Shown piece by piece: positions 5,425 to 56,138 of a stretch of 64,000 nt of DNA. Both the position numbers and the translations under genes were made by a program. Position 1 is the first letter of the stretch. Every line of letters starts with the position of its first letter. The notes beneath the pieces were generated by a model, which did not search any database, had not been told where the DNA came from, and saw only the letters and a list, made by a program, of their open reading frames with translations. Source of the DNA: a virus (taxonomy: Duplodnaviria > Heunggongvirae > Uroviricota > Caudoviricetes); IMG/VR virus record IMGVR_UViG_3300002834_000024, positions 1 through 64,000 of that record; one strand, given 5' to 3'.

Positions 5425-6618
5425 TTAAGACATCATCAGGAATTGTTTTCTCATATCAATAAGAATATCATTAAAGAAGTCAATATCAACTTGATCTGGT
5501 AATGAACAGGTATTGATATTTTGTTCAATATAAGATTTCTTTTCTTCAGCAATCTTCATTATTTTGTCATAATCCCATTCACCTTTTTTTACGGATAAGA
5601 TGAAATCTCTGTCAATATCAGTTCTATCAATGAGGAAACCTTTACCATTAACAAGTTCTTCACCCATTGTTAAAAGCCGAATACAATGTGAAATGTTTTT
5701 GACATCATAATTTCGTTGGCTTTCAATATTGATTTTAAATCTTTCAGGATTTCTTTTTTTCTTCCAGTCTTGGTAATTTTTATAATCAACACAAAATTTT
5801 GAGTATCCTGATTTGTTATATGTCATATAACAAATTGGTAAAATCTCTTTTTCAACAGAGGATAATCTCACTTCATTACTATCATCACCAACAATACCAC
5901 GATAATTAGTTTCATTGATTGTATTAATAACTATGTTTAATGGTTCTAAATTTAAGAAAGAACATGCCATTCGATAAGAATTATTAATTAATTTTAATAA
6001 AATATATTCTTCTTCATCTGTGTTAATTTCAAAAAACTTTTCATTGTAATGTTTTTTGAAATCATAATATAAACCATAAACATCGTGCATATGTGGAATA
6101 TTTACCAACCCACAGTATTCTTGATATAAACTATTTTGTTTAAGATAATCTTTAATGGGTATTGAACCCTGTTCTTTGAATGTATAACAAAAGTCAAGAA
6201 CATCTTTCTTTTCTTCAATTGGATTAACAATTGCTTTATTTAACCCACGTGCCTTTTGAATTTGAGAATGGGCATATTGGGTTAATATCTTTGCTAATTC
6301 TTTTGTCAAAAATTTATTTCCATTTTCAAAAATAGGGGTTAAAATTTTGTGAGGCTTGGTTAACATTTTATCCTTCGGAACAAAAACACCCTCGATCATA
6401 TTTGGATTTCCTTTAATAAGGAGTTCAACCCATCTACCAAGTTCGTAAAACACAACATCATTACCATCAACATTCATTTGTTCTTGATAATTTTGTCTTA
6501 ATCCAAGAATATCATTGATATTTTGGACAAAAACACCAGATTTATCAAGATCACTATTTTCTGTTGCTAATCCATACAGTTGTGAACCACGAATATATTC
6601 ATAAATTATATTTTGCAT
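5425..6618 (-). CDS. Pol-beta superfamily nucleotidyltransferase (RlaP/PF10127-like predicted NTase)
   Basis: N-terminal motif IRGSQLYGLATENSDLDKSGVFV is the hG[GS]x(9-13)Dh[DE]h nucleotidyltransferase signature. The size (397 aa) and following helical region resemble the RNA-repair-associated NTase family. Family assignment is from memory of the motif style, not a search. Confidence 0.5.
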   Translation of the reverse strand: MQNIIYEYIRGSQLYGLATENSDLDKSGVFVQNINDILGLRQNYQEQMNVDGNDVVFYELGRWVELLIKGNPNMIEGVFVPKDKMLTKPHKILTPIFENGNKFLTKELAKILTQYAHSQIQKARGLNKAIVNPIEEKKDVLDFCYTFKEQGSIPIKDYLKQNSLYQEYCGLVNIPHMHDVYGLYYDFKKHYNEKFFEINTDEEEYILLKLINNSYRMACSFLNLEPLNIVINTINETNYRGIVGDDSNEVRLSSVEKEILPICYMTYNKSGYSKFCVDYKNYQDWKKKRNPERFKINIESQRNYDVKNISHCIRLLTMGEELVNGKGFLIDRTDIDRDFILSVKKGEWDYDKIMKIAEEKKSYIEQNINTCSLPDQVDIDFFNDILIDMRKQFLMMS

Positions 6619-6952: not shown

Positions 6953-7294
6953 TGGGATATTTTTTTCTAATTGTTTTTTAAATTCTTCGATGGTTTCAAT
7001 ACCAAAGTTTTTTCGTTCTTGGTCTGTTAAATCTCTTATATCCCCACAAACTTTACATTCCATTTTTGAAAAACATCTTGGTTGAGTAGATGTTAGATAA
7101 TATTCATGTAAACCATCTTCATTTAAACAGTCTGCTTTTTCAACATTATAATCAAAACTTATTTGTGTTGTATATACAAACATTTTTTCACATCCACAAC
7201 ATTGTTGTGAATATATTTCATCTTCTTCATAACCATAACCATCATCATGGTTTATGTATTGTTCTTTTCCGCAATAGGGGCAATTTATACTCAT
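6947..7294 (-). CDS. Cys-rich zinc-ribbon protein
   Basis: 115-aa ORF with CPYCG...CCGCE...CKVCG cysteine pairs. Stop codon lies inside the promoter-element 13-mer. Confidence 0.5.
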   Translation of the reverse strand: MSINCPYCGKEQYINHDDGYGYEEDEIYSQQCCGCEKMFVYTTQISFDYNVEKADCLNEDGLHEYYLTSTQPRCFSKMECKVCGDIRDLTDQERKNFGIETIEEFKKQLEKNIPF

Positions 7295-7626
7295 TTTCTA
7301 TATGTTATATCAAAGTTATATAATTTACATATCTGGTACAATATGTTATCTTCATCTGGATATTTTTCAAATTCATTGTAATTCATAGTTAATTCTTCAC
7401 CAATTTCAATATCTTTTATTGCAAAATCCCCAATTGGATCAACACCAATGTTTGGATTATATGAATGATTGATATATCTACCGCCATCCATTGGCATAAT
7501 ATATAAACCTGAAAATATATCTTTATATGCGTGTTCAACTATGTCAAGTTGAATTTGTTCTGGTGCATATAATATTGCTTCTTCATCTAATATTTGGTCC
7601 AATCCATGAATAAATCTTGCAACCAT
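7291..7626 (-). CDS. SET-domain protein (putative lysine methyltransferase); N-terminus ambiguous
   Basis: Contains YINHSYNPN (the SET NHSCxPN motif with C to Y) and ELTMNYN (the ELxxxY post-SET region). The GxG motif (NAYGLGVYADEFIPNGT) is encoded in frame immediately upstream of the first ATG (7627-7677), but a TAA at 7678-7680 and no canonical start codon precede it. Confidence 0.5.
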   Translation of the reverse strand: MVARFIHGLDQILDEEAILYAPEQIQLDIVEHAYKDIFSGLYIMPMDGGRYINHSYNPNIGVDPIGDFAIKDIEIGEELTMNYNEFEKYPDEDNILYQICKLYNFDITYRK

Positions 7627-15206: not shown

Positions 15207-16310
15207 TTACGCTGCAAGTGCATAGATACTATCGTGTGTCTTTTGCATTTTTTTGTACACATCCCCATCCATAATGGCGTTAAACTTATATTCATCACCT
15301 TTGTTGTAACTTCTGTGGTTTTGGAAGTATGTACTCATTCCATTGAGTACCCAAAGTGCGCTTCCCCTCCATCTTTCCTGACCAATCCCATTATCCAATG
15401 TATTCAATACATTTTCAATTGTGTTTCTTGATCTGGTAGAGATGTCAATGTGATTAAAATTGTAGTTTTCAAGTTGTAATTCTCTTACTTGGGATTGTTC
15501 AAGGAATACATCAGCAACAATTTTCTTAACGATATTGTCATCAACCTTTACATCAGCAAATCTGTTTAAAGTATCCTGTAAATTCTGAACATAAATTTTA
15601 TGCCCCCTTAAAATACTCAAAGCCATTTCTAGGTTTTCCTTTTGTTTCAGATTTACTTTTGAGTGAACGTTTTTGGTGTGTTTGAAGTACACCCGATTTT
15701 TACCCTCATGTAATGCCATGTTGAGAGTGTTATTACAAACTACACGTGTGGTACAGAATTGAGCGATTACTGCGCCAGTTCCATCATGGCTGTTAGTGAA
15801 AAGAATGTAATCTTCAATCACATCATCACTGTCTTTGATTTTGAATGGTTCGTTAAACCTTGCGGTTACAAACATTCTTTCGCCACCCCCAAGTACACCA
15901 GCTGTTTCAATAAAGGGGGCATCAAACTGTCCCGACACTCCGCTTAGAATGTCTTGTACAAACTCAAAGCCTTGCAAGTTTTGTACAACTTCATAACCAC
16001 TTCCAACAACACCTAAAATGTTGTCTAAATCACGTCTAACTGTACATTGATGACTTTTGATTATATCCTTTTGATTGAAAATTCTATCAAGAGGTAAACC
16101 CATTTTGATTTTTTCCAAATCTTCAGATGTGATGCGTATAAGCGCATCTTTTTCTACTTGATAATCAGCTCTACAAGCTGTTATCGCTTCATGAATGGTA
16201 ATTCTGGGATCATCAAATATAATTCCCAGTCCATGCCAAGGCTTATTTATTCTACCACCTGCTGTTACAAAACTACCTTTGTCGTCTCTCATTTCAATTT
16301 CGTGTGCCAT
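15207..16310 (-). CDS. DUF932-family (phage/plasmid-like, TIGR03299-type) protein
   Basis: N-terminus MAHEIEMRDDKGSFVTAGGRINKPWHGLG matches the characteristic MAH..E....F......pWHGLG start of DUF932 proteins. 367 aa. Confidence 0.55.
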   Translation of the reverse strand: MAHEIEMRDDKGSFVTAGGRINKPWHGLGIIFDDPRITIHEAITACRADYQVEKDALIRITSEDLEKIKMGLPLDRIFNQKDIIKSHQCTVRRDLDNILGVVGSGYEVVQNLQGFEFVQDILSGVSGQFDAPFIETAGVLGGGERMFVTARFNEPFKIKDSDDVIEDYILFTNSHDGTGAVIAQFCTTRVVCNNTLNMALHEGKNRVYFKHTKNVHSKVNLKQKENLEMALSILRGHKIYVQNLQDTLNRFADVKVDDNIVKKIVADVFLEQSQVRELQLENYNFNHIDISTRSRNTIENVLNTLDNGIGQERWRGSALWVLNGMSTYFQNHRSYNKGDEYKFNAIMDGDVYKKMQKTHDSIYALAA

Positions 16311-16464: not shown

Positions 16465-17136
16465 TTAGAAAGGCAAGTTATCAGCATTACTTCCACCCGA
16501 ATAATACTGTTGATTATTTGGCTGCTGTCCTTGTTGTGGAGTAGCCTGATATTGCGGTTGTCCTTGTGGTTGTGGCTGATACTGTGGTTGCTGGTTTCCA
16601 CCCCTTTGTTGTGTCCCACCTTGTGGTGGGACTTGTTGGTATTGTTGAGGAGGCGGAGCTTGTTGATACTGCGGTTGTCCTTGTGGTGGAGCCTGATACT
16701 GCGGTTGAGGTGCTTGTTGCCATGTCTGTTGTTGATTCGGATTATAACCTTGTGCTTGTTCGTTGTAAGTATTTTGCTTTCCATTTCCATTAGGATTGCT
16801 ACCAGTTAAGGTTAACTCCCCACCATCTGCTGAATTAACAACAACTTCGGCGACTCTTACTTTTTCCCCATTATCTCTATCCCATTCTCTATATGTAAGT
16901 TCCCCCTTAATGGCAATTTGAGAACCTTTACTAACATATTCCTTTGCGACTTTTACAACAGAACCTCTGATAACAATCTGATGCCAAGATGTTTTTTCGG
17001 GAATTGTGCGACCATCTTGTGTTGTAAATCCTCTCTTTTTGGTGGCAAGACTAAATGTAACAATTTCGCCACCATTATCAAATGTTGTAACTTTTGGGTC
17101 TTGCCCAACATGACCAATTAAAATAACTGTATTCAT
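16465..17136 (-). CDS. ssb: single-stranded DNA-binding protein (bacterial OB-fold type)
   Basis: N-terminal OB fold MNTVILIGHVGQDPKV...ETSWHQIVIRG...IKGELTYREWDRDNGEKVRVAEVVVN. Low-complexity Q/P/G-rich linker and an acidic C-terminal tip ending DNLPF (like DDDIPF). Overlapping ORFs in this region are frame artefacts of the repetitive linker. Confidence 0.85.
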   Translation of the reverse strand: MNTVILIGHVGQDPKVTTFDNGGEIVTFSLATKKRGFTTQDGRTIPEKTSWHQIVIRGSVVKVAKEYVSKGSQIAIKGELTYREWDRDNGEKVRVAEVVVNSADGGELTLTGSNPNGNGKQNTYNEQAQGYNPNQQQTWQQAPQPQYQAPPQGQPQYQQAPPPQQYQQVPPQGGTQQRGGNQQPQYQPQPQGQPQYQATPQQGQQPNNQQYYSGGSNADNLPF

Positions 17137-19814: not shown

Positions 19815-20606
19815 TTATTTAATTAATTTTTCTTCTTTTAAAAATTTTGTAACCTTTTCTCTTAATGCTTCACTTTCAAGATTATTATAGCACCATTTTA
19901 GGTAAGGTAAGTCAATTTGTTTTACTTCTTGAAATGTTTTATCTCTGTATTTACCAAACCCTAATGTCATATCTTCTGTTTTAGGTGTGGTTTTTTGTAT
20001 TTCTTCTTGTGTAATCTCAATGCTGATAAATTTTTTAGATGCAAGATAATCACATACATGTAATAATTTATCAGGTTCAGTTGTTGGATATTGAACTGGT
20101 ACTGTATCTTTTTCACCCCACTCTCCCATATGTGTTTCGATAGGCATGATTAAATATTTATGTATATCATTTTCAGAATCCAAAAAATAATTATCAGTAT
20201 CAGGAAGAATATTAGAAATAATACAGTTTCTAATACATTTAATTACAAATGCAACAGCATATTCAGCATGATTTTTAACAGTATGCGCTGTTTTATTATC
20301 ACCCTTTTTAATCATATCATGTGACATGGCTGCTATTAATAATAAATCTTTTTGATTATCCGTAAATTCCCACATTTTAAGATTATATAAAGTTATCATT
20401 AGTTTTGCAACCATTTTGGTATGTCTAACTAAACCGCCATCCCCAAGACTTATTGCTGGATGATATTTTCCACTTGTTGATGCTGGTATTTCAAAAAAAT
20501 ATTGGGGGACATTTTCTAATATATTTTCTGCTAATAACTTGTATTGCGGATTTTTAATAAAAGACAATTCTTCTTTAAAAACATCTAATCTTTCTTGTTT
20601 ATTCAT
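19815..20606 (-). CDS. HD-domain phosphohydrolase
   Basis: Motifs GKYHPAISLGDGGLVRHTKMVAKL and AAMSHDMIKKGD give the H...HD...D metal-binding pattern of HD hydrolases. Confidence 0.6.
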   Translation of the reverse strand: MNKQERLDVFKEELSFIKNPQYKLLAENILENVPQYFFEIPASTSGKYHPAISLGDGGLVRHTKMVAKLMITLYNLKMWEFTDNQKDLLLIAAMSHDMIKKGDNKTAHTVKNHAEYAVAFVIKCIRNCIISNILPDTDNYFLDSENDIHKYLIMPIETHMGEWGEKDTVPVQYPTTEPDKLLHVCDYLASKKFISIEITQEEIQKTTPKTEDMTLGFGKYRDKTFQEVKQIDLPYLKWCYNNLESEALREKVTKFLKEEKLIK

Positions 20607-20705
20607 GTATAATCTGTTATTTTATTCTATCTAAAAATACATAAAAAAAATATAACCTACAACTTTACATTGTAGGTTATATTCAAAATGATTGAAAGAA
20701 TTATT

Positions 20706-22091
20706 CTATTCTTCTGTATCAGCATTAACTTCTTCAATAGATTCAATGTCCGCTTCGCCATTGTCTAATTCAATAGTTTCCATCAAGAAATGTGATTTGG
20801 TTTTAAGTTTCAAGGCTGGTGCTCCAGTTGAATCATTCCGAATAACAATTCCTTCATGTGGTACATCATTAAAACAGTCTGGGGAATTAACTTCCATATA
20901 AAACCGATTTTTATCTTTTGAAAGTTTATCAACAAAATTTGTGTGCCAGTGTTCTTCGATTGAAAGTTCGGGATATACATCTTTTGCTTTACCATAATAC
21001 AATTCCTTTACAGGTCTTATATTTCTTTCTTTACACCAGTTTTGAACTTGTTTTGCACTAAATTCAAAAACAATACCATCTTGATTTGTATAAGTTATCC
21101 GATACACATAGATTTCAAATTCACCTGATTTACATTTATAGTCATGGTTTTTTTGAATATATTTATCACTACCAGGTAAAAAACCACATATTTCTGCATA
21201 TATAGTCATACCCTTTTCCAAAAATGGTTTTAAACGTTCACCAGCTGCTGTCCAAACATCTACACTATAAAAACCAGATCCAACATCTTTGTTGATATAC
21301 CGATTTTTGATGACACCTCTTGACGAGTAAAGCACATCATATTCATTTGCAACTATTCTTGCACCAAAAAATTGTAATAACATCTCTGGCCATTTCAAAT
21401 TTCTATTTACTAAAACATCACTTACAATTAAACTTGTACCATGATATTTAGTTGTAATAGAAACAATATCATCTGGATCAATTTTGAACATATTATCAGC
21501 AAGTCTTGCGGTATCATAATGGAATGAAAATTGATTTTCGATCAATTTGTCAAACCGTTTCAATCTGTTGTTTCGTCTAACATTTTTTGACGTTCCAAGA
21601 TTTGGTTGTCTTGTTTGATGTATAACATACTTTTTGGAAAACAATTGATCATTGACGGTATCAAATGCAATATCAACATAATCAGCAATGTTTCTCAAAT
21701 CTAAATTTGGTTGCCATATTTTCAACCAATTAATTGGAAAGACGAATCCTGTTGATATAATTTTTTGCAGGTTTATTGCTTTTACACGACCTTTATTTTC
21801 AAAAAACCCAGTTTCATTTTTATCGTGAACTTTATTCATTGCAATATCTCTGAATTGGTTATTTTCTCTCAAAAATTCCATATTCAAAGTGCTTTCACAT
21901 GGACAATATACAACAATATCGCCTATTTCAATTGACCCTCTACCAACAATAATATCATTACCCAATATAGTAGTAATATCAAGTCGTGTCACCTTTGGAT
22001 CTGGGTGAGGTCTAACATTATCAATACGAATTATCTTTGTTAGATAGTTTTCGTTTGCTTTTTCACTTCTTGTAAATAATTTTGTATTCAT
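20706..22091 (-). CDS. ATP-dependent RNA ligase, DraRnl/Rnl5-like (N-terminal OB module plus nucleotidyltransferase)
   Basis: Covalent nucleotidyltransferase motifs are seen: motif I TTKYHGTS (the KxHG variant used by Rnl2/DraRnl ligases), motif IV HEGIVIR, and motif V ALKLKTK. An about 200-aa N-terminal extension precedes motif I, as in the DRB0094 family. Confidence 0.6.
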   Translation of the reverse strand: MNTKLFTRSEKANENYLTKIIRIDNVRPHPDPKVTRLDITTILGNDIIVGRGSIEIGDIVVYCPCESTLNMEFLRENNQFRDIAMNKVHDKNETGFFENKGRVKAINLQKIISTGFVFPINWLKIWQPNLDLRNIADYVDIAFDTVNDQLFSKKYVIHQTRQPNLGTSKNVRRNNRLKRFDKLIENQFSFHYDTARLADNMFKIDPDDIVSITTKYHGTSLIVSDVLVNRNLKWPEMLLQFFGARIVANEYDVLYSSRGVIKNRYINKDVGSGFYSVDVWTAAGERLKPFLEKGMTIYAEICGFLPGSDKYIQKNHDYKCKSGEFEIYVYRITYTNQDGIVFEFSAKQVQNWCKERNIRPVKELYYGKAKDVYPELSIEEHWHTNFVDKLSKDKNRFYMEVNSPDCFNDVPHEGIVIRNDSTGAPALKLKTKSHFLMETIELDNGEADIESIEEVNADTEE

Positions 22092-22096
22092 TGTTT

Positions 22097-23152
22097 TTAT
22101 TTTTTTAAAATTAGTGTATTAGTTGGATATGCAAATTCCAACTCATTAGCATTAAATGCTGATAAAATTTGTAAATTAACTTTTGACTGTATATCAAGAA
22201 TATTAACATTTTGTCTTATATGATATATCAATGTAATTTGAAGTGCAAAATCTGTATAATTATTAAAATACGCATGAATATCATGTTTAATTTCGGGTAT
22301 AAGATTGGGCAAATCTTTTAATATATTTAAAGCCAATTGCATTTTATCTGGTGTTGTATCATAAGTTAATCCCAATAAAAGTGTTATACGTCTTACGGGT
22401 TCACTTGTAATATTTTCAATAACCGAATCAACAACTTTGGAACAAGATATGGTTACTATACGTTTATTTAGTGTACGAATACGCACACTACGAATCCCAA
22501 TATCTTCAACAATACCATCAATACCATCAATTAAAACTCTATCACCAACTCTAAATGGTCTGTCAGTAAATAATACCACACCAGCAAAGATGTTTTTAAT
22601 TGTATCTTGTGATGCCAGTGCAAGTGCAACACCACCGATACCAAGACCAGTAAGTAATGTTGTAATATTAATGCCAATATATTTTAATGTTATTACAATC
22701 CCTACACACCAAACAAAAATGTTTACTGTTTTTTGTACTGTATGAACAAGTGAATAATTAAATTTTTTATTTTTATTATCAATAGAGTTATTCATGTATT
22801 CTTTAATAACCCCATCAAATACTCTTGCAAACAACCATGTGAGATTGATAATGAATAATATTTTATATGTATTATCAATATACAGACTGGTTTCGGGAGT
22901 AAAAATAAAAATTTTTAATGCTTTCCAAATTCCAAAAATAATAATACCATAAACTATAGGATTTTGAGATTTTTCAATTATGACATTATCATATGTCGTT
23001 TTTGTTTTACTTGCAATTTTAACAAAAACATTTCTGAAAATCCATTGAATACTTCTTTTAAGTAAAATAACTATGATTATAATACCTAATGAAATTAACC
23101 ATTGGGTTAATGAAGTATCGTATAGGAATGTGTTATTAAAAAAATCAAACAT
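22097..23152 (-). CDS. mechanosensitive ion channel, MscS family
   Basis: Multiple N-terminal TM helices, then the canonical MscS core GIGGVALALASQDTIKNIFAGVVLFTDRPFRVGDRVLIDGIDGIVEDIGIRSVRIRTLNKRIVTI. Confidence 0.8.
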   Translation of the reverse strand: MFDFFNNTFLYDTSLTQWLISLGIIIIVILLKRSIQWIFRNVFVKIASKTKTTYDNVIIEKSQNPIVYGIIIFGIWKALKIFIFTPETSLYIDNTYKILFIINLTWLFARVFDGVIKEYMNNSIDNKNKKFNYSLVHTVQKTVNIFVWCVGIVITLKYIGINITTLLTGLGIGGVALALASQDTIKNIFAGVVLFTDRPFRVGDRVLIDGIDGIVEDIGIRSVRIRTLNKRIVTISCSKVVDSVIENITSEPVRRITLLLGLTYDTTPDKMQLALNILKDLPNLIPEIKHDIHAYFNNYTDFALQITLIYHIRQNVNILDIQSKVNLQILSAFNANELEFAYPTNTLILKK

Positions 23153-23239
23153 AATTTATGTAAGTTTAAACTGATTATGCAAATTGGTCAAGTAGTTCAT
23201 ACCTGACCAAGATGCACATACAGTATTTAGTATTTTTGT

Positions 23240-24079
23240 TTATCTATTACGTCCAACTTGTAATACATTTTCGGCATTTGTACCAATCACTAAATTAATA
23301 TTCGCATTATCTTTTACCCTAATAATTTCGATTAATTCCTTATTATTATCTAATTGTTTTAATGCGATAAACTCATTTGGTGTTAATCCCAAATCCCTCA
23401 TATATGCCTTATCAGCCTTTGCTCTTGCGGATTCAGCCTTTTCTCTGGCTATTTCAGCTGCTTCTCGTTTATCCTGGGTTTCTTTCGCTTGGATTTGTGC
23501 TGCTGTTCTATCCATTTCTTCAATTACCGCATCATTTGGTCTTGCTCTACCTGTTATAACATCTATTAGTTTTATTGGTAATCCCTTTTCTTTGATTATT
23601 TTTTCAAGCGTAATTCGTAATTCACCATTAATTTCTTCATACACTGTTCTATCTGATGTTAATCTAAACATAGGATATTTCGATATTTGCGCTCTTACCA
23701 TTTCCCTATAAAGTGCTTGAATGTTATTTTCAAACCATTTTAAACCAAAATTTTTATACAATATAGGTGATTTACCACTTTCGATTTGTAATGATAATGT
23801 AACTTGTAAATTAACAGGTGTGTTATTTTGGGTAATCACATCATTAAATTCCTCGTCATATCTTAACGGTATCATATCAAAAATTTCGGTATCTGTGGAC
23901 CATGCTGGAAAATACCTATCACCACTACCTGGTTTATCGTGAACACCAGCGCCACCAAATAACCACGGCTTTCCAATAAACACAACCTCCTGTGTTTCAT
24001 CAACTGAAATGGAATAACATCCACTTAACATAAACACTGCAACAAACATTGTTGCCAACAAACTAAAAATCTTTCTCAT
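23240..24079 (-). CDS. SPFH/band-7 domain lipoprotein
   Basis: Signal peptide with lipobox MRKIFSLLATMFVAVFMLSGC. The C-terminal region resembles prohibitin/band-7 domains and is followed by a charged coiled-coil EEMDRTAAQIQAKETQDKREAAEIAREKAESARAKADKA. Confidence 0.55.
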   Translation of the reverse strand: MRKIFSLLATMFVAVFMLSGCYSISVDETQEVVFIGKPWLFGGAGVHDKPGSGDRYFPAWSTDTEIFDMIPLRYDEEFNDVITQNNTPVNLQVTLSLQIESGKSPILYKNFGLKWFENNIQALYREMVRAQISKYPMFRLTSDRTVYEEINGELRITLEKIIKEKGLPIKLIDVITGRARPNDAVIEEMDRTAAQIQAKETQDKREAAEIAREKAESARAKADKAYMRDLGLTPNEFIALKQLDNNKELIEIIRVKDNANINLVIGTNAENVLQVGRNR

Positions 24080-24092
24080 GTCTTTACAATTT

Positions 24093-24734
24093 TTAAATTA
24101 AACTTAAATTTATAATATTTTCTTCTTTTTGCTTATCTAATATTTGATTAACTTCCACTAATGAAATTGGTCTGTAATCATTACGTTCAACTGAAACATT
24201 ATATGAATTTATAGTTCCGATCTCATTGTTTTTTTCGTGGATATGACCATGTAAATGATAAACCCCATGATGTTTTCCCTCCCAGTTATATTGAGGAAAA
24301 TGGTCTAATATGTATCGCCTTTTTCCACATCTAACTTCCAAACGTTCTTTTACTGATAACAATTTTGTTACAATACTGGTTATTTGATTCGGAGTATAAT
24401 GTTTTTCAACTTTTTCAACACATTTTCTATCATCATGATTCCCAATAACAAGAATTTGAATACCATTTAGTTTATCGAGAAGTTTTATCCATTGATCAGA
24501 ACTTCCAGACCAACAAAAATCCCCTAAATTGAAAACATAATCGTTAGGTTGAACAACACTATTCCATTTTTCAATCAGTTTATCGGACATTTCTTGCATG
24601 TCAGAAAATGGTCTGTTACATAATCTGATTATATTTTTATGAAAAAAATGATGATCAGATGTAAACCAAACATTTTGTTCATCCTTTACATCAGTAAATT
24701 CGATGTATCCATATTTTGAAGATATTTTAATCAT
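24093..24734 (-). CDS. calcineurin-like metallophosphoesterase
   Basis: Metal-binding motifs in order: WFTSDHHFFH, FNLGDFC, VIGNHDD, HLHGHIHE. Confidence 0.75.
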   Translation of the reverse strand: MIKISSKYGYIEFTDVKDEQNVWFTSDHHFFHKNIIRLCNRPFSDMQEMSDKLIEKWNSVVQPNDYVFNLGDFCWSGSSDQWIKLLDKLNGIQILVIGNHDDRKCVEKVEKHYTPNQITSIVTKLLSVKERLEVRCGKRRYILDHFPQYNWEGKHHGVYHLHGHIHEKNNEIGTINSYNVSVERNDYRPISLVEVNQILDKQKEENIINLSLI

Positions 24735-24993
24735 ACCATTTTAATTTTTGACCACAATTTGGACAACGTTCTAAATTATATGCTCTTGTATAATATCCAT
24801 CATCACATGGTTCATAATCATGAAAATCTTCCAGACAAGTTGGACATTCGCTAGGACACCAATCACTTATCATTGGTTTAACTGGTGTGTTGAGTAATTC
24901 AAGTGCATCTCTAATGCCTGTTTCATAAAGGGGATAATTTCCCATGTTATTTTTCTCAACTAATTTTTCAACTATTCTATCTATAATTTCCAT
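24727..24993 (-). CDS. small Cys-rich (zinc-ribbon) protein
   Basis: 88 aa with CPSECPTC and CPNCGQK pairs. Overlaps the downstream gene by 8 nt. Confidence 0.45.
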   Translation of the reverse strand: MEIIDRIVEKLVEKNNMGNYPLYETGIRDALELLNTPVKPMISDWCPSECPTCLEDFHDYEPCDDGYYTRAYNLERCPNCGQKLKWYD

Positions 24994-25010
24994 TTTCTTT
25001 TAATTTGATA

Positions 25011-25058
25011 CAAAAGTACAAATAAAAATTGGATAAGGGAAATTACTGGATGTTAAAA
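25011..25058 (-). promoter_or_regulatory. conserved bipartite minus-strand promoter element (TTTTAACATCCAG-N27-TAcTTTTG)
   Basis: Plus strand shows CAAAAGTA at 25011-25018 and CTGGATGTTAAAA at 25046-25058. About 20 nt upstream of the ATG of 24727-24993. The stop codon of the upstream gene abuts the 13-mer. Confidence 0.6.
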
Positions 25059-26168
25059 TTATTTTGGCCCAGTATTGGTTGTTGTCCTGTTTGGGGAATA
25101 AGATTGTGTTTGATATGATGGTTGAACATAGTTTTCTTTTAAAACCAATTTATCACCAACATAATTTGCAACAACAAAAAAATCATTGTTAGGGAATAGT
25201 TTAAGATTTTCCTGATATGTTATACCTAATACTTTACAATCATTTCTAGATAAATCTATATAATTTTTATCAATGAATTTTACAACCCAACCATCATATT
25301 CAATATTCCTAATTGTATTTATTTTATAAATGATTTCTATTTCTTTTTTTCTACTTTGTAAATCATTGAAATCATTAATAAAATATTTTAAATCAGATGT
25401 TGTATTATTAGATAATTTAGATAATTCATTATATGAAAAATTAGATTTATGCCAACTCTGAACTTCAGGTACTAATACTACTTTTTGTGTACTATTTGGT
25501 AACTTTTTAATTTTTGCATGAAAAAAATGTGGGGGACTAATTTTTTCAACTTCAAGCATATAAAAGTTATCAAATTTTTCTGTTTCAACTGTTTCAGATG
25601 TAATGTAATCAAATAAATTAGATTTATATTCTGGACTATCAATCATAAATACCATAGAACCAACTTGTAATTCTTGGTTTTCAACTAAAGGGGTTACTTT
25701 TGATAGGAAACAAACTTTAGTCTCCCCAACAGAACGTGCAACACATGATTCAGTAGAATAAAATCTATTGTGTTTCCAACTTGGAGTAGTTAAAGCATAA
25801 GTAATATCATATTTAATAACATTACCGTCCCCATTATCATTATAATTGGATATTAAAGAGTTGAGATTTTTTACTGGTTCTAATTGAGGCTTGTATCTGG
25901 ATGGTAAACGCAAAACATTACCATCCCCATTAAATATTAGGGAAAATGGCTTATTGATTTCAAATATGCAAAGCACATTTTTATCTCCATTTATAATAAT
26001 ACGTGGAGATGCTTTGTCATAGTATACAGCAATTTTATTTCTATCACCATTTACAACTAAATTATCTGCCTTATCACTTGTAAATACTAATTCTTGTTTA
26101 TCACCATTTACCGTTTTACTCATTTGATTACTTTTTATTATTTTCCTCTTGTTGTTGCCACGCTTCAA
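25059..26168 (-). CDS. repeat protein with five NGD-x-N beta-strand-like repeats (possible beta-helix/polymer-forming fold)
   Basis: N-terminal region has five repeats spaced about 15 aa apart: VNGDKQELVF, VNGDRNKIAVYY, INGDKNVLCIF, FNGDGNVLRL, DNGDGNVIKY. An alternative start at an internal Met (26123) would remove the 41-nt overlap with the upstream gene. Confidence 0.4.
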   Translation of the reverse strand: MKRGNNKRKIIKSNQMSKTVNGDKQELVFTSDKADNLVVNGDRNKIAVYYDKASPRIIINGDKNVLCIFEINKPFSLIFNGDGNVLRLPSRYKPQLEPVKNLNSLISNYNDNGDGNVIKYDITYALTTPSWKHNRFYSTESCVARSVGETKVCFLSKVTPLVENQELQVGSMVFMIDSPEYKSNLFDYITSETVETEKFDNFYMLEVEKISPPHFFHAKIKKLPNSTQKVVLVPEVQSWHKSNFSYNELSKLSNNTTSDLKYFINDFNDLQSRKKEIEIIYKINTIRNIEYDGWVVKFIDKNYIDLSRNDCKVLGITYQENLKLFPNNDFFVVANYVGDKLVLKENYVQPSYQTQSYSPNRTTTNTGPK

Positions 26169-27282
26169 GTTCAGAATTTGATAGTGTTGGTATCAAAGAA
26201 ATTTTATTATTTAATGTTAATAAACTTTTTTCAAGATCCCTTCTTTTTGTTATTGCATCATTATTAATTTGTTTTGATTCAATTAACATATGAATAATAT
26301 CATTTGTGCTTGATTCAAGTGCTTCCAATGCAACTACTGAATTTTGATTTTCAGTATTAATTTCTTTCATTTGTATTCTAATATTTTTTGCATTTTTCTT
26401 GATTGTCTCATTAGTTGTTTTACTAAGTGCTTTATGACTTTCTAAAACTTTTTTCTGATTATATAATGCAAGAGAATTTGCGAGAGCATTTTTAAATATA
26501 GGAATAGTTATGGTTGAAATAGTATCCGAATTGTTCATTAATTTTACATTCCCATATTGAATGGCACGTTTTTCTGTTAAACCATTTTGTAATGTATATC
26601 TGGCTACTAACCAATCCGTAACTCTTTTATCAAAAATATTTATATATTCAGTTAAATTGTAAATTTCATGATCGTCATAATTATCTGGGTTTTGGTTCAT
26701 ATCATCTAATTTTGTTTGTAAAATTTCGAGTTGTAATTTTCCCCCAATAATCATAGTTTCCAATTCAGCAATGGAATCCTTATCATTATCATACATTGTT
26801 TGAAGCGTATTGTTATCACCAGCTAATTTTAATTTACCAGCAGCAATTTGGTTGGATATTTCGGTGACACTATTTGAAATAGTATCATATTTTTTAACAA
26901 TTTTATTTAATTTTTTGAAATATTTTCCAATTATTGGCGTTTTTGAAAATTTTACAAGAAATTTATTAGGTAAAGACTTAATTTCATCTGGATCAATTAA
27001 TTCCAATTGCATTTGTAACTCTGTTAATAGATTACCAATTTCACCAGCATTATCTATTTTACAGTGATTAAAAAAATTTGATGAGTTTGTGGAAATTTTT
27101 TGACCAACATCAGTCCCAAATTGAACAATATCCCCAATATTTTCTCCGTCAAATTGTTTTACTTTTTCAAGATATTTTGTTTTTTCTTCGTCCGATAAAA
27201 TAGATAAGTTAATGCTGTTATCTTTTGCAATAATCGCTAACATGTTCCCATCCTTTCTTTGATTTTCACCTGAATTTTTCAT
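26128..27282 (-). CDS. TelA/KlaA-like (toxic-anion-resistance family) protein
   Basis: About 380 aa and largely helical. Architecture and segments such as DIVQFGTDVGQKIS...AGEIGNLLTELQMQLELIDP resemble TelA family proteins. Assignment is from recollection of the family, not a search. Confidence 0.4.
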   Translation of the reverse strand: MKNSGENQRKDGNMLAIIAKDNSINLSILSDEEKTKYLEKVKQFDGENIGDIVQFGTDVGQKISTNSSNFFNHCKIDNAGEIGNLLTELQMQLELIDPDEIKSLPNKFLVKFSKTPIIGKYFKKLNKIVKKYDTISNSVTEISNQIAAGKLKLAGDNNTLQTMYDNDKDSIAELETMIIGGKLQLEILQTKLDDMNQNPDNYDDHEIYNLTEYINIFDKRVTDWLVARYTLQNGLTEKRAIQYGNVKLMNNSDTISTITIPIFKNALANSLALYNQKKVLESHKALSKTTNETIKKNAKNIRIQMKEINTENQNSVVALEALESSTNDIIHMLIESKQINNDAITKRRDLEKSLLTLNNKISLIPTLSNSELEAWQQQEENNKK

Positions 27283-27312: not shown

Positions 27313-27699
27313 TCAATTGCAAAAATAACTACTTTTCAATTGATTTGAAAGATATTTGTTCTCAATATATTTTTTTATTATATCCCCATGACATGATAAA
27401 GGTTTACAAAAACAACCTAAATATACATTTTTACCATTAGTATATAGAGTATAGATTTCGTTAATCTTATTCTGTAACATTTGGTTTATTTCAATTTCCG
27501 AATGGAAATAATTTCGATATTTTTCAATAGAATCCTCTCTGTTTTCAACTATGAATTTGGCTAATGTATTTTTATCCTTTATACTTGTGAATGGATTTGA
27601 TAATACATTACCATATCTATCTCTACCTATATAAAAATAAGGTTCTCCACTTGGTGGAAACTCTTTTTTTATATTTATTACATATATTTCGCCACACAT
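27313..27699 (-). CDS. DUF4326-family protein
   Basis: The block FYIGRDRYGNVLSNPF matches the YIGR...NPF signature of DUF4326. Confidence 0.5.
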   Translation of the reverse strand: MCGEIYVINIKKEFPPSGEPYFYIGRDRYGNVLSNPFTSIKDKNTLAKFIVENREDSIEKYRNYFHSEIEINQMLQNKINEIYTLYTNGKNVYLGCFCKPLSCHGDIIKKYIENKYLSNQLKSSYFCN

Positions 27700-30103: not shown

Positions 30104-30601
30104 TATTGTTTTTACCTTTGAATTAACTTCTTTAAGTTTATCTAATATGAGATATGGAAAAACATATTTAGTTTTTAACACATAAGGGTAGTAGTCTACT
30201 TCTATTTTATCTTCATTTTTTCCACTTAATCGAAGCCAAGTCAAACTTAATTTTTCAAACAACTGGTTTAATCGAACTGGCGTGCTTGCATTTTTATCGG
30301 TTTTATTTCGATAATTCCACCAGGCATCCCAATATTCCCTTTCACAATTTATTGCTGTATTTGGAACTATATCAATTACAAATTGTTTTCCAAATAATGT
30401 AATTGCTAATCGTGGAGGAAAATCATACCGTAAAAAATCATCTGGCCATTTAATACTATATCCTAAAGGACAATAATGAATACCCCATTTTATGTTATAT
30501 GGAGTTCCATAAATTGCATCGCCAAAATAAAATTGTAATTTTAATCCTTTGAATGGTGATTTTAATACAGTTAAATATTCTAATGATTCAAGTATTTTCA
30601 T
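30098..30601 (-). CDS. hypothetical protein, translationally coupled to the FKBP gene
   Basis: 167-aa ORF whose start overlaps the FKBP gene stop by 4 nt (ATGA). Confidence 0.45.
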   Translation of the reverse strand: MKILESLEYLTVLKSPFKGLKLQFYFGDAIYGTPYNIKWGIHYCPLGYSIKWPDDFLRYDFPPRLAITLFGKQFVIDIVPNTAINCEREYWDAWWNYRNKTDKNASTPVRLNQLFEKLSLTWLRLSGKNEDKIEVDYYPYVLKTKYVFPYLILDKLKEVNSKVKTII

Positions 30602-30936
30602 TTAATTTCTAATAATTCTACATCAAATGTTAAATCTTCATTTGGTCCAATTACATTACCAGCACCTCTTGTACCATAAGCCATAGCAGATGGTATGTTG
30701 AGTGTTCTTTTTCCCCCAACTTTCATTCCAACAATGCCAACATCCCAACCTCGTATTACTCTTTGAACTCCAATCATAGTTTCAAAAGGTTCGTTTCTTT
30801 TGTATGATGAATCAAATTCCTTACCATTGGATAATAATTTTCCTGAATAGTGCATTACGCATACATTACCAGGTTTCACTGTTTCACCTTCACCAACAAC
30901 AGTGTCAATAATTTGTAAATTGTTTAATTTTCCCAT
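30598..30936 (-). CDS. FKBP-type peptidyl-prolyl cis-trans isomerase
   Basis: VKPGNVCVMHYSGKLLSNGKEFDSS...MIGVQRVIRGWDVGIVGMKVGGKRTLNIPSAMAYG...LTFDVELLEI is the canonical FKBP domain. Confidence 0.8.
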   Translation of the reverse strand: MGKLNNLQIIDTVVGEGETVKPGNVCVMHYSGKLLSNGKEFDSSYKRNEPFETMIGVQRVIRGWDVGIVGMKVGGKRTLNIPSAMAYGTRGAGNVIGPNEDLTFDVELLEIK

Positions 30937-36240: not shown

Positions 36241-38754
36241 ATGAAGAAGCAAGAACTGTTGTCCTTTTCAAAAGAGTTAAATAATATCGTAAAACTTGTT
36301 GATGATGAAATTATTAAACAATTTCCAACATATAATATAAGTATAGAATACATCATTTATGGTATTCTATGTTCTAATAAATCAATTGGTTATCAAACAT
36401 TGGAAGATTTAACATTGAGTAGTAACATTGAGATGATGCAAACGATGTTATCCTCTCTACTTAATACAAAATGTTTAGCCAATAATTGTCATATTATAAG
36501 TCCAAGAAAAAAGGTTGTATTCGATGATGAAACTTTAACCACATTTAACAAAGCTGATGAAGAAAGAAAATTATTAAAAGATGAGGAACTTACAAGTGAA
36601 CATGTTTTATTAAATATTTTGAAATCAGAACATGACATTAAAAAATCTTTTAATAACATTGGAATAACATATGATATTTTCAAAGGTAGAGTTATTACCA
36701 AACGAAATGAAGAAACTAATCCTGTTGAAGAAAAACCAATAGAACAACAACCAAAACCAGTTTTAATTGCACAACCAGGATGTCCTATGGTAATGGTTCC
36801 ACAATTACCTAAAAGAACCAAAAATGGGAATATTGAAAAACACACCATAAACTTAAATCTATTATACCAACAAAACAAATTAGATAAAGTTATTGGCAGG
36901 GAAAAAGAAGTTAATACAGTTATGAAGACATTATTAAAACGAAATAAAAATAATGTGATTTTAACTGGTAATAGTGGGTGTGGTATTACATCCATAGTTA
37001 ATTTATTGGTTGAAAAATTAGTCATTGGAAATTGTCCCACACCTTTAGTAAACAAAGAAGTTTTAAAACTTAATATTAATTCAATGATTGAGAGTAGTCA
37101 ATATAAGGGGATATTTGAACAACGGACAATTGATTTAATGAAAGAGATAAAAGAATATAAAGGTAAATACATTCTATTATTAGATGACATTCATGTTGAT
37201 TTGATGAAAGATAACAACAATGATGTATTAACATTTCTAAATACATTATTGACTGATGATGATATAAAAGTAATCGTAACCATACCTTTACAGTCATATA
37301 AAAAAAATATTGAAAAATATGGATTTATTGAAAAAAGATTAAATAAGATTATTGTTGATAACATGAATATGGATGATACTATCAAAGTATTGCAAACAAA
37401 TAAACATTATTATGAAGATTTTCATAATGTCTTTTTTTCAGATGATTTAATCGAACAAATTGTAAAATTATGTGAAAGATATATTTCAGATAAAGCATTG
37501 CCATCATCAGCAATTGAAATAATTGACATACTTGGTAGTAATTCTCGTTTAAAAAATGAAAGTGTAAATGAAATTATTCAAGTAAAAAATGAGATTAGTG
37601 TTATGCAAAACCGAATGGATGCTGCAATCCAAGCAGAACAATATGAGGTAGCTGATACATGTAAATTAAATCTAAATAAACTTAATACAAAATTAAAAAA
37701 TTTAACGGAAAGTAATATTAATAAAAAAGAAATTAGTGAAATAACTGAAAATGATTTACTTTCTATTGTTAGTGAATTATCTAAAATACCATTAACAACA
37801 CTTTCAACCAATGAGTTAAAACATATTGGAAAATTATCTGACATTATTAAAGAAAATGTTATTGGACAAGATGAAGCAGTAGATAAGGTTGTGAAAACTA
37901 TTCAGAAAAATAGACTTAATTTGAAAAGTAATGTTAAAAAACCATCAGTGTTCTTTTTTCTTGGCAATTCTGGGGTGGGTAAAACACTATTGGCAAAACA
38001 ATTAAGTAAAACTGTGTATGGTGATGAAAAAAATATGCTAAGAATAGATTGTTCGGAATTATCTGAAAGTCATAGTATTAGTAAATTACTTGGAAGTCCA
38101 GCGGGGTATATCAGTCATGGAAATTCAACTATATTAGATAAAGTAAAACATAACCCATATACAGTTGTACTTATTGATGAGATTGAAAAGGCACATGATA
38201 ACATTTACAATTTATTTCTTCAATTGTTTGATGATGGTAGAATAACAGATTCAACTGGTGTTACTATTGATTTTAGTAATACGATAATAATAATGACTTC
38301 TAATGTTGGAACAAAAATTTCAAATGATTATAAACCTGTTGGATTTGGTACTATTGATGATGATACATTATTAAAAAATCGGGAGGATATTATTAAAAAA
38401 CAGATGAATAAAAAGTTTACACCTGAATTTTTAAATAGAATTAACTCTATTATCTATTTCAAACCATTAACAGAAAAAAATATTAAAGATATTATTGAAT
38501 TAAATTTGAATACATTTAATTCCATTTTAAATGATAAAAATGAAAAATACAGTATAAAATGGACAGAAGAAGTTATTGAATTTATTTTTTCTAAAATAAG
38601 CGAAGATGATAAAAAATTAGGGGCAAGACCAGTTCTTCGGTTAATCGAAACTCACATAGAAGAAAAAATCACCGAATTATTAATTGAAAATTCATATTCT
38701 GATAACTATATATTTTCCATAAGTATTATTGATGATGAAACAAATATTATTTGA
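36241..38754 (+). CDS. ClpC/ClpA-like AAA+ unfoldase with degenerate first ATPase domain
   Basis: Two Clp_N-like repeats at the N-terminus. D1 Walker A is GNSGCGITS (Lys replaced by Ile) and Walker B is ILLLDDIH (DE to DD). UVR-like motif QAEQYEVADTCKLNLNKL. D2 is canonical: FLGNSGVGKTLLAKQL, VVLIDEIEKAH, and sensor region GRITDSTGVTIDFSNTIIIMTSNVG. Confidence 0.8.
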   Translation: MKKQELLSFSKELNNIVKLVDDEIIKQFPTYNISIEYIIYGILCSNKSIGYQTLEDLTLSSNIEMMQTMLSSLLNTKCLANNCHIISPRKKVVFDDETLTTFNKADEERKLLKDEELTSEHVLLNILKSEHDIKKSFNNIGITYDIFKGRVITKRNEETNPVEEKPIEQQPKPVLIAQPGCPMVMVPQLPKRTKNGNIEKHTINLNLLYQQNKLDKVIGREKEVNTVMKTLLKRNKNNVILTGNSGCGITSIVNLLVEKLVIGNCPTPLVNKEVLKLNINSMIESSQYKGIFEQRTIDLMKEIKEYKGKYILLLDDIHVDLMKDNNNDVLTFLNTLLTDDDIKVIVTIPLQSYKKNIEKYGFIEKRLNKIIVDNMNMDDTIKVLQTNKHYYEDFHNVFFSDDLIEQIVKLCERYISDKALPSSAIEIIDILGSNSRLKNESVNEIIQVKNEISVMQNRMDAAIQAEQYEVADTCKLNLNKLNTKLKNLTESNINKKEISEITENDLLSIVSELSKIPLTTLSTNELKHIGKLSDIIKENVIGQDEAVDKVVKTIQKNRLNLKSNVKKPSVFFFLGNSGVGKTLLAKQLSKTVYGDEKNMLRIDCSELSESHSISKLLGSPAGYISHGNSTILDKVKHNPYTVVLIDEIEKAHDNIYNLFLQLFDDGRITDSTGVTIDFSNTIIIMTSNVGTKISNDYKPVGFGTIDDDTLLKNREDIIKKQMNKKFTPEFLNRINSIIYFKPLTEKNIKDIIELNLNTFNSILNDKNEKYSIKWTEEVIEFIFSKISEDDKKLGARPVLRLIETHIEEKITELLIENSYSDNYIFSISIIDDETNII

Positions 38755-55900: not shown

Positions 55901-56137
55901 TCAAAAGATGCTGGTATTAAAAATGCCTTTATCCAACATCACTATAAGAACAATAATCAAATAAATGTCAATTCTGATGCTGTATCATTTGGAAAAGTAA
56001 AAAATAATATGGGGGAAAGTTTGGTGTATTGGCATGTTGATGGTGATGCTTCCCCTGACAGTGATAGTTATGAAATTGGTCCAGAAGAACCAATTACAAT
56101 TAAAAATGTTGTTGAACAAATAATTAAAAATATATAA
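52991..56137 (+). CDS. large multidomain (polyvalent-like) protein with a kinase-like domain
   Basis: 1048 aa starting at TTG (TAA in frame 2 codons upstream; no ATG until about residue 70). The N-terminal block YGYFKNSVGYDGDHVDVFLG...KGKFDETKFMMGFDSEEEAKKAY resembles inorganic pyrophosphatase signature regions (YGYI...DGDPVDVLV; KGKWVKVEGWENAEAAK). The middle domain is shared with 38785-40572. Kinase-like region LGGGGSGVAYLTLDGYVLKLTT...LDSFLGGSNFGFDDNGVIKAFDLEG. Followed by a cell-wall amidase gene. Confidence 0.55.
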   Translation: MDLQNIIEQTIKQALRSAEKTVDTNPSEKEIKAGNYKKGHINILGFDITIENPKGSYRSGKDRDGKEWKTKMYNTYGYFKNSVGYDGDHVDVFLGNNLESNKIFGIDQFIKGKFDETKFMMGFDSEEEAKKAYLSNYDKDWKGFKYIRETDVETFKKWLYRGKKQRLPFHDYVTLSESILNELSIGRVLLSHFTDALNNPKLFNEPNWIQKHKEIQDNHGDNFNITKINSEILNKLIPQYTSKNPELMSNMGIENAINLLTKNKYRSDQAVNLTKELLSLHNELKENPELINNGNFMDRYNHLKKLYGNRVNLDKPYKKSDRRDTNGNLINNKEDIPLQKKPIETKSNINKKSLKQEPLVIGWEMIESKETNIIRINNRGSWLEDFCEKIKKYTDKFEILYDCAYDKHNKTGQKYGIESKEYPGIGQFDYVMIYSDVSVEDKEKYKYLRNDGEYEITCRGIKTKEILKDILKRLGQNGNSGHTFAFKIKSLNGNKEDTLQYDGDGHDFVELLDDKKNETINESTENIEQEESKKMIKNYFGIQLMDDWDKLRLGGGGSGVAYLTLDGYVLKLTTSPNEFRTAQRMKGKTFKHLVNVYNVLDFEQENIPPYGYWKKGKWVRCFYGILEEYVDSNLQYNQFMHKYIMDVLFNDNIMNGIVGTKASHNNRYIMLEYLISEENVNTIISRIESYDKFNEDQKNVYIDATQQLHEAVLEMESVPGLELDSFLGGSNFGFDDNGVIKAFDLEGIMTENTLYERDMRFYNDNNEEMDITDYLDTSSEMKIDTAINIINTKLRQPQARHQVLKYILKNINKSNMSGQMKMDLRDQVMEDLSNKVTKLIIPTMFKDGEQQRVDVDTHLEDLNEENKRLLSHKFQIPTELFQTLSNRFNKIKGNQNFTSRDGYKRLQNLVNSNGEIGYLWMNRLKNFWKYFDGDADNDIEAWLNGGGEMRDWVNKALDEAEKSLEMSKMTSKDAGIKNAFIQHHYKNNNQINVNSDAVSFGKVKNNMGESLVYWHVDGDASPDSDSYEIGPEEPITIKNVVEQIIKNI

Positions 56138-56138
56138 T

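Follow-up and report, generated by a model that had tools for sequence, protein, structure and literature searches.

Does an RNA ligase gene with two phosphohydrolase-like genes close by mark an RNA-repair pathway in a large phage? The question is raised by a 64,000-nucleotide stretch of Caudoviricetes DNA (IMG/VR record IMGVR_UViG_3300002834_000024, positions 1 to 64,000; hereafter the window), in which an earlier note, made from the sequence alone, had grouped four open reading frames (ORFs) into one RNA-repair-like set: a DraRnl-type RNA ligase (20706-22091), an HD-domain hydrolase (19815-20606), a calcineurin-like metallophosphoesterase (MPE; 24093-24734) and a Pol-beta nucleotidyltransferase (5425-6618). 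All four ORFs were found at these positions and all on the minus strand; for 5425-6618 the note had given no strand, and the plus-strand frame there holds 26 stops. The source is a jumbo phage with T4-type structural genes, because the metagenomic contig that encodes the exact ligase and HD proteins (ena:ERZ27257346:k141_3250306, the window being roughly 281,081-345,080) is 347 kb long (347,076 bp) and a second contig with identical genes runs on into T4-type major capsid and portal genes. The answer that we consider fairly probable is that the ligase most likely works in a dispersed, non-operonic RNA (tRNA) repair toolkit together with an RlaP-family nucleotidyltransferase and a CCA-adding-type enzyme with an HD domain, that the HD protein encoded next to it stands outside this toolkit, and that the MPE may be no more than a bystander.

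The ligase and its probable RNA-repair partners

The ligase ORF carries the covalent nucleotidyltransferase motifs that had been read from it earlier, namely motif I (K215-Y-H-G-T), motif IV (E413-G-I-V-I-R) and motif V (L-K428-L-K430), together with motif Ia (S257-R258) and motif III (E300). In an alignment of 28 homologues at 44-72% identity, K215, H217, G218, S257, R258, E300, E413, G414, K428 and K430 were invariant. In Pfam searches two domains passed their cut-offs, namely RNA_ligase (PF09414, aa 210-422, E=2.4e-7) and, N-terminal to it, the PHA02142 OB-fold (PF21189, aa 18-120, E=1.4e-8), and phrog_968 'RNA ligase' matched the protein from end to end (E=4e-46). An N-terminal OB domain (~aa 18-160) is followed by a disordered linker (161-179) and the nucleotidyltransferase domain. 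A C-terminal domain is missing, the 31 residues past K430 consisting of one helix and a low-confidence acidic tail.

Direct phmmer searches of the ligase and of the RlaP protein against solved structures gave no match, and for the ligase a profile and a fold search were needed. When the profile of the ligase family was run against 177,635 solved sequences, NgrRnl was the sole match (E=1e-4), over NgrRnl residues 12-119 of the N domain. Foldseek with the AlphaFold (AF2) model (pLDDT 85) returned NgrRnl at ranks 1 to 13 (E=2e-13 to 2e-12), over ~440 columns and both domains, followed by REL1 and T4 Rnl2 (4e-8) and by Rnl3, Rnl1 and tRNA ligase (1e-6 to 1e-3); DNA ligases appeared only at 1e-3 or worse. 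Because of this ranking, a placement among DNA ligases or capping enzymes, named beforehand as the result that would overturn the proposal of an RNA ligase, was ruled out. TIGR02306 (DRB0094) matched the N-terminal region at E=2.8e-5, with 23.1 bits against a cut-off of 151, short of the equivalog score.

DraRnl has TEKLHG as motif I, SK as motif Ia and EGVVV as motif IV, and ends soon after motif V (PMC1807946). The phage ligase is like DraRnl (DRB0094) and NgrRnl (PDB 5COT) in the order of its OB and adenylyltransferase domains, in the lack of a C-terminal domain and in motifs Ia, III, IV and V, and it has the KxHG form of motif I in common with DraRnl. It differs from both in length (461 aa versus ~340), in a longer N-terminal region that puts the motif I lysine at K215 instead of K165/K170, in an insertion between motifs I and Ia and in the acidic tail. 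Identity to NgrRnl is only ~13%, and the protein belongs to the phage 'PHA02142'/phrog_968 subfamily. All in all, motifs, Pfam, profile and predicted fold identify the ORF as a divergent Rnl5-family (DraRnl/NgrRnl-type) ATP-dependent RNA ligase, as the earlier note had proposed from the KxHG variant and the N-terminal extension, in which Pfam and the profile match to NgrRnl now place an OB domain. Judged by its sequence, it represents a distant subfamily of Rnl5 and not a DraRnl orthologue. We infer its activity and biological substrate, like those of the other enzymes treated here, from relatives: as in DraRnl and NgrRnl, Lys215 would attack ATP to form ligase-AMP, the AMP would then be handed to a 5'-phosphate end, and the 3'-OH of an RNA strand would attack, so that a nick held in a duplex would be sealed.

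Ligases of the phrog_968 type occur in 454 phage records (Mycobacterium 296, Pseudomonas 75, Microbacterium 27, Gordonia 22, all 15 Lak megaphages and a few others), and 'RNA ligase' is the usual annotation among the annotated matches listed; the window protein is one more divergent member of a subfamily that already bears this name in hundreds of phages. Its nearest relatives lie on contigs of ~360 kb and in metagenome-assembled genomes labelled Bacteroidales, and a scan of viral contigs with the ligase yielded one relative only.

The Pol-beta nucleotidyltransferase turned out to be a genuine RlaP, that is, of the RNA-repair type that had been suggested for it (PF10127, E=8e-16, 58.9 bits versus a cut-off of 23; phrog_388, E=2e-48), and it shows the Pol-beta signature G11-S12 and D23-L-D25. 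Pseudomonas RlaP enzymes add one or two nucleoside monophosphates (NMPs) to damaged RNA 3'-OH ends (PMC12776372). By analogy the window RlaP is predicted to add 1-2 NMPs to such ends, and in the toolkit it would refill one or two nucleotides lost from the 3' end of a damaged RNA. Its gene lies 14 kb from the ligase gene, with opposite-strand genes between them, and the two are not in the same operon, as they are in L010 and Trax (see below). The best phage relatives of this RlaP are those of the Lak megaphages, all 15 of which carry both ligase and RlaP, the ligase lying at least 95 kb from RlaP.

Just before the start of the window, ~6 kb from RlaP and on the same strand, is the gene for a class II CCA-adding-type enzyme (TIGR02692, E=1e-74) with an HDIG domain (E=1e-8). 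In E. coli, the CCA enzyme acts through its HD domain as a 2',3'-cyclic phosphodiesterase and a phosphatase, and for this reason healing of 3' ends would be ascribed in a more orthodox way to the CCA/HD enzyme as candidate than to ORF 19815-20606. As in the earlier note, no polynucleotide 5'-kinase was recognised in the window, where Pfam gave no kinase match among ORFs of at least 100 aa, a Walker A scan picked out, apart from one chance-like site, only the ClpB-like protein and the UvrD-like one, and neither a Pnkp hidden Markov model nor tblastn with Pnk proteins had a match; the kinase-like ORFs that had been pointed to elsewhere in the window were not borne out by these searches. The ~6 kb before the window start hold no kinase either, and Pnkp is either encoded in the remaining ~283 kb or missing.

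The company that this ligase family keeps in other phages was examined at 12 other ligase loci from about eight lineages, with 2-12 kb of flank each (L numbers are our labels for the loci compared). RNA-repair partners lay near the ligase in four lineages. In Gordonia phage Trax (genes 81-94), Pnk is followed by one gene, the ligase, RlaP four genes on and then a Ro-like protein. In Mycobacterium phage Bromden, Pnk precedes the ligase by 4 kb. Two gut phages of ~170 kb (L009 and MT835470) encode an ATP-dependent DNA ligase, Rnl and a T4-type Pnkp (AAA_33+HAD_PNKP) within 2.5 kb, and L010 has RlaP 4.7 kb upstream of the ligase on the same strand. Where a healing enzyme is present near the ligase family in other phages, it is a kinase-phosphatase (Pnkp/Pnk).

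RNA ligases, RlaP, CCA enzymes, kinases and phosphoesterases of jumbo phages have been surveyed (PMC7824862). The window phage has the same ligase family as the Trax-type repair sets (31% identity to Trax gp83) and the jumbo-phage sets of that survey, the same RlaP family and a CCA enzyme; it differs in that its genes are spread over ~22 kb and interleaved with unrelated genes, and in that no Pnk/Pnkp or Ro-like gene was found in ~70 kb. It resembles T4 Pnkp and Rnl1 in concept, a phage-encoded heal-and-seal system undoing host tRNA cleavage, but an Rnl5 is a duplex nick sealer and not an Rnl1, and a kinase-phosphatase is absent from the window. Phage RNA repair as counter-defence is a reasonable idea that has already been published (PMC7824862; PMC12776372). 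Nothing here is categorically new: kits of this kind are known from jumbo phages and actinophages, and the window contributes a further jumbo phage in which the published combination of RlaP, CCA enzyme and ligase is present.

The HD protein and the metallophosphoesterase near the ligase

Between the stop codon of the ligase and the start codon of the HD gene lie 99 nt, which contain a hairpin with a 16-bp stem and a 5-nt loop, followed by U8. The hairpin folds with -18.8 kcal/mol (z=-6.3), and none of 200 shuffled sequences was as stable. Because of this hairpin and its U8 tract the ligase gene appears to end a transcription unit, and the HD gene would appear to start one of its own. The ligase gene is also followed by a hairpin and a U-rich tract, though by another hairpin than here, in L003, the nearest syntenic relative, in which the order MPE-SPFH-ligase-...-SSB-DUF932 is as in the window.

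That the ligase is flanked by an HD-domain protein was confirmed, though not its proposed role as end-healing partner. In the window protein itself Pfam finds ExoX-like_C alone (aa 217-244), and NCBIfam matches the ExoX C-terminus (E=2e-7); the HD domain was revealed indirectly, many of 1,958 homologues carrying PF01966 (HD) and PF20600. The HD part spans aa 1 to ~197 and the ExoX-like C-terminal domain ~aa 199-258, with H49, H62, H96-D97, H113, H159 and D186 invariant in the family alignment. The best solved relative of the family profile was YhaM/Cbf1 (E=3e-6). The model (pLDDT 91), which is all-helical from residue 1 with the HD core beginning near residue 40, gave the YhaM cryo-EM structure 9h3f as best Foldseek match (E=8e-4, ~22% identity) and SAMHD1 as a weak second. 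YhaM, which has an N-terminal OB domain and a two-metal H...HD...HH...D site, degrades single-stranded DNA (ssDNA) and RNA as a Mn-dependent 3' exonuclease (PMC12107432). The phage protein shares the HD core of YhaM/Cbf1 (9H3F, 9O7T) and its metal-ligand positions in GGL-x-x-H, HD, SH-x-G and D; H62, H96-D97, H159 and D186 align, but it has Met160 for the second His of the HH pair, additional conserved H49 and H113, and the ExoX-like C-terminal domain instead of the N-terminal OB domain. Because of the missing OB domain and the Met for the second His, we class it as YhaM-like and not as a YhaM proper, probably a nuclease or phosphodiesterase associated with replication.

The contexts of HD homologues are those of DNA metabolism. 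A related jumbo phage (L005), which carries one of the three closest homologues (54% identity), has ThyA, ribonucleotide reductase (RNR), ClpB-like and KTSC genes beside it; in L006 the neighbours are PolIII-alpha, PDDEXK, OGG, guanylate kinase and RNR, and in an SPbeta-like prophage (L007) they are YorF, DnaB and PolIII-alpha. In SPO1 the homologue, gp32.6, has DNA polymerase gp31 on one side and the genes for the exonuclease and the DNA ligase on the other. The SPO1 DNA ligase gp32.95 was considered as a relative of the window ligase and rejected, with no tblastn match at E<=0.01. The ligase was not found at any of these four HD-homologue loci, nor was the HD gene found at any of the 12 other ligase loci, and in L003 a 135-aa ORF occupies its position. 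Members of the HD family were counted in 43 records of the phage collection (Bacillus 28, Clostridium 12, Halogranum 2, Exiguobacterium 1), at least 30 of which cannot carry the ligase by host genus, the host overlap amounting to at most a handful of Bacillus records. The adjacency of HD and ligase genes is unique to this genome among the loci compared. The HD protein does not appear to be the repair partner of the ligase, beside which it seems to have been placed by chance. Its family (YhaM-like HD plus ExoX_C, phrog_5889) recurs in the replication modules of SPO1-like, SPbeta-like and gut phages.

Some HD/ExoX_C homologues (P0147, P0159, P0183) have long C-terminal extensions ending in DDLPF, which resembles the acidic tip of single-stranded DNA-binding protein (SSB). 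The SSB of the window ends in DNLPF after a Q/P-rich linker of ~100 aa. This hints, from sequence resemblance, that the HD family may dock on the SSB interaction network.

The calcineurin-like phosphoesterase two genes away from the ligase was likewise confirmed (PF00149, E=2.9e-7, 31.6 bits versus a cut-off of 21.5; phrog_547, E=4e-49), and its metal motifs are complete (D27-H-H29, G71-D72, G98-N-H-D101 and H160-x-H-G-H-x-H166). Its only solved relative is Aquifex aeolicus aq_1665 (PDB 1XM7, E=5e-14), a full-length match of equal size with the same motif set; aq_1665 is a structural-genomics protein, so the match is mute on substrate. The gaps from MPE to SPFH, MscS and ligase are 13, 87 and 5 nt, and no intergenic terminator was predicted among these genes, so co-transcription of the four is possible.

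Similarity of any extent to the MPE was found in 1,476 phage records and full-length similarity in 80. The distance from a homologue to the ligase is 8.5-11 kb in L009, MT835470 and Lak-C1, and in Stenotrophomonas phage Moby a homologue lies between a tRNA array and pseT, 0.9 kb from the latter. In XacN1 and Xoo-sp13 the surroundings are Pth, NADAR and Nudix, in a Vibrio phage a cAMP phosphodiesterase, and in Comrade nothing informative. Other MPE types are found 2-3.5 kb from the ligase as well, one that is MPPED2-like in L010 and a further one in L009 and the Lak phages; this variety could reflect functional displacement, or early regions may simply be rich in such enzymes. In L002 and L008, the Metallophos genes that lie 7-8 kb upstream of the ligase were set aside, since an adjacent protein of ~900 aa suggests an SbcD-type nuclease. 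These contexts would tie the MPE weakly to RNA repair, and its end-healing role is possible but unsupported; as a candidate for the healing of 3' ends it is weak at best.

SPFH and MPE genes also adjoin each other in L003, and in the Acidobacteriota phage Tunturi_3 of Tunturiibacter (L022:2445-4657) homologues of SPFH (E=2e-23) and MPE (E=4e-16) lie 0.75 kb apart; SPFH and aq_1665-type MPE may be a conserved gene pair. The MPE gene of L003 (L003:1708-3363) encodes 551 aa, the two ends of which match residues 1-114 and 85-212 of the window protein. Its insertion of ~340 aa has a LAGLIDADG_3 match and looks like an intein near the GNHD motif.

One repair set, replication enzyme or dispersed toolkit

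The reading of the earlier note was that HD protein, Rnl5 ligase, MPE and RlaP form one functional RNA-repair set, in which the HD protein and/or the MPE do what Pnkp does in T4, healing 2',3'-cyclic phosphate ends, and the kinase is absent or non-canonical. The HD gene does adjoin the ligase, the MPE gene is two genes off on the same strand, and the MPE-SPFH-ligase order is preserved in L003, as is everything else in that lineage. In L009 and MT835470, homologues of the aq_1665 type are 6-10 kb away from Rnl and Pnkp, in Moby one is beside pseT and the tRNA array, and the other MPE types close to the ligase in L010, L009 and the Lak phages point the same way. There is also precedent in Runella slithyformis HD-Pnk and Clostridium thermocellum Pnkp, in which an HD or calcineurin-type phosphoesterase is the 2',3'-phosphate-removing module, fused to a 5'-kinase; in the phage, the hydrolases stand alone, the window lacks a kinase, a terminator separates HD and ligase genes, and the HD protein is nearest to YhaM. 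We regard a single set as very unlikely, given that hairpin, the exonuclease-type HD family resident in replication modules, and an HD gene that is not beside the ligase in any relative and in L005 lies beside ClpB, KTSC, ThyA and RNR genes instead. The MscS and SPFH genes interrupt the set, the contexts of the MPE are heterogeneous (XacN1, Tunturi_3, Comrade), of the 296 Mycobacterium phage records with the ligase at least 270 lack any match to it, and in four of the other lineages compared the partner of the ligase family is a Pnkp or Pnk kinase. What survives of the set is the ligase and RlaP; with MscS and SPFH genes inside it and RlaP 14 kb off, no sign of clustering beyond inherited synteny was seen. 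For the MPE one may think instead of work with the SPFH lipoprotein and the membrane genes (MscS, TelA), or of the degradation of nucleotide signals, the closeness to the ligase being inherited synteny only. The pairing of MPE and SPFH genes in the window, L003 and the distant Tunturi_3 would fit this, as would TelA and SPFH homologues 3-10 kb from the ligase in Lak phages, which speak for an old synteny of clearly non-repair genes, and jumbo-phage calcineurin-like phosphodiesterases have been predicted to act on cyclic nucleotide signals (PMC7824862). Since the MPE-SPFH pairing is seen in two independent lineages only, no signal peptide or membrane segment is evident in the MPE sequence, and aq_1665-type enzymes have no known activity, we hold this to be most improbable.

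A weightier rival makes the ligase a DNA-replication or repair enzyme that seals nicks with an RNA 3' end (unremoved primers, ribo-patches), for which the HD/ExoX_C nuclease could trim 3' ends. Rnl5 needs a duplex nick with an RNA 3'-OH strand, which it can join to 5'-phosphate DNA, and deletion of DraRnl slows genome reassembly after irradiation (PMC1807946, PMC5397189); this, the sole genetic result on the physiological role of Rnl5 ligases, points to DNA repair (PMC5397189). Gene neighbours agree with it. A PolB gene abuts or overlaps the ligase gene in two related lineages (L002, 10001-14888; L008, 10001-14723), the ligase follows the ATP-dependent DNA ligase gene with a 1-nt gap in L009 (8803-11368) and likewise follows a DNA ligase gene in MT835470, it directly follows a helicase gene in cyanophage B23, and SSB neighbours it in Bromden and is also near in L003 and the window (SSB/DUF932 3.5 kb away). 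Homologues of the HD protein lie in replication clusters, including the SPO1 block of DNA polymerase, exonuclease and DNA ligase, and YhaM is a 3' deoxyribonuclease on ssDNA (PMC12107432). The DraRnl genetics and the replication-gene neighbours keep this reading alive; we judge it unlikely, though deserving of some weight, because actinophages, L009 and L010 show a tight linkage of the ligase family with RNA-repair genes (Pnk, RlaP, Ro-like), because early regions of phages routinely mix replication and RNA-repair genes, which makes the proximity of PolB or SSB weak evidence, and because the HD-ligase adjacency is unique to this genome. In its boldest form, which we take to be quite unlikely, the Rnl5-type ligase of this and related jumbo phages would be a replication-fork or DNA-repair enzyme sealing RNA-ended nicks, here newly paired with a YhaM-like HD/ExoX_C trimming nuclease. 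A replication-fork or DNA-repair role would account for the recurrent position of the ligase gene next to those for PolB, DNA ligase, helicase and SSB, and, if true, would give Rnl5 ligases their first physiological role in viruses.

The neighbours and the DraRnl genetics just described weigh against a dispersed RNA-repair toolkit, and so do several other points. Scans of the window for tRNA genes and Rfam RNAs were both empty, and since a polynucleotide kinase is absent from it as well, the window does not demonstrate a full pathway of healing and sealing. The analysis covers ~70 kb of the 347-kb genome (the window and ~6 kb before its start). A role of the MPE keeps some weight, because MPEs of various types recur less than 10 kb from the ligase in several lineages. 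The dispersed toolkit is nevertheless the reading that we favour, and our results are mostly corrective: adjacency in the early region of a jumbo phage is no evidence of a pathway.

Gene map and other features of the window

The ligase sits in an accessory-gene-rich early region of the jumbo phage, within a run of co-directional minus-strand ORFs from TelA, the first transcribed, to DUF932 (Table 1). The SSB-DUF932 order is preserved in L003.

Table 1. Features of the ligase region and of the RlaP and CCA-enzyme genes, in window coordinates unless otherwise given
Feature	Position	Strand	Basis or remark
TelA	26128-27282	-	Pfam/PHROG
Two unassigned ORFs	between TelA and MPE	-	
MPE, calcineurin-like, aq_1665 type, 213 aa	24093-24734	-	PF00149, phrog_547
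SPFH/Band-7 lipoprotein	23240-24079	-	Pfam Band_7 E=6e-15; phrog_200 'lipoprotein'
MscS-type mechanosensitive channel	22097-23152	-	Pfam MS_channel_2nd E=3e-20
Rnl5-family RNA ligase, 461 aa	20706-22091	-	PF21189, PF09414, phrog_968, fold
Intrinsic-terminator-like hairpin	20648-20684	-	terminator scan, RNA folding
YhaM-like HD protein with ExoX-like C-terminal domain	19815-20606	-	profile, fold, Pfam matches of homologues
Three unassigned ORFs	between HD protein and SSB	-	
SSB	16465-17136	-	replication-type gene downstream of ligase block
DUF932 protein	15207-16310	-	replication-type gene downstream of ligase block
RlaP-family Pol-beta nucleotidyltransferase, 397 aa	5425-6618	-	PF10127, phrog_388
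CCA-adding-type enzyme with HDIG domain, 469 aa	~0.65-2 kb before window position 1 (L025:3918-5327)	RlaP's strand	TIGR02692

The MscS channel gene, which ends 5 nt upstream of the ligase start, has no relation to RNA repair and is lacking at the ligase locus of L003. Genes of membrane-stress type (TelA, SPFH lipoprotein, MscS) cluster round the ligase (22097-27282) and are unusual phage cargo. Homologues of TelA lie 3-5 kb from the ligase in Lak-C1 (L015) and Lak-B5 (L017), and one of SPFH ~10 kb away in Lak-B5; the presence of TelA and SPFH near the ligase in both the window and Lak phages suggests old shared synteny. In a 360-kb relative (L001), whose ligase is 59% identical, the ligase gene lies next to genes for SOD, an NMN-adenylyltransferase-like protein and NAD synthase.

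The window is AT-rich (26-37% GC) and also encodes SNF2 and UvrD helicases, ribonucleotide reductase, a ClpB-like ATPase, a T4-type prohead protease and tail-tube-like genes. Further cargo unusual for a phage comprises a SET-domain protein (7291-7626), a DUF4326/DUF488-N3a protein (27313-27699), an FKBP-type prolyl isomerase (30598-30936) and a ClpB-like double-AAA chaperone (36241-38754). Within 52991-56849, a protein of 1048 aa matches the inorganic pyrophosphatase domain InPase (PF18823, E=1.5e-49) over its first 160 residues, and an Amidase_3 cell-wall hydrolase is encoded directly after it. A possible second Pol-beta-type nucleotidyltransferase is encoded at 57133-57900, where PF01909 matches weakly and below its cut-off (E=8e-4); the product matches phrog_36119, a family with no function assigned, at E=2e-37.

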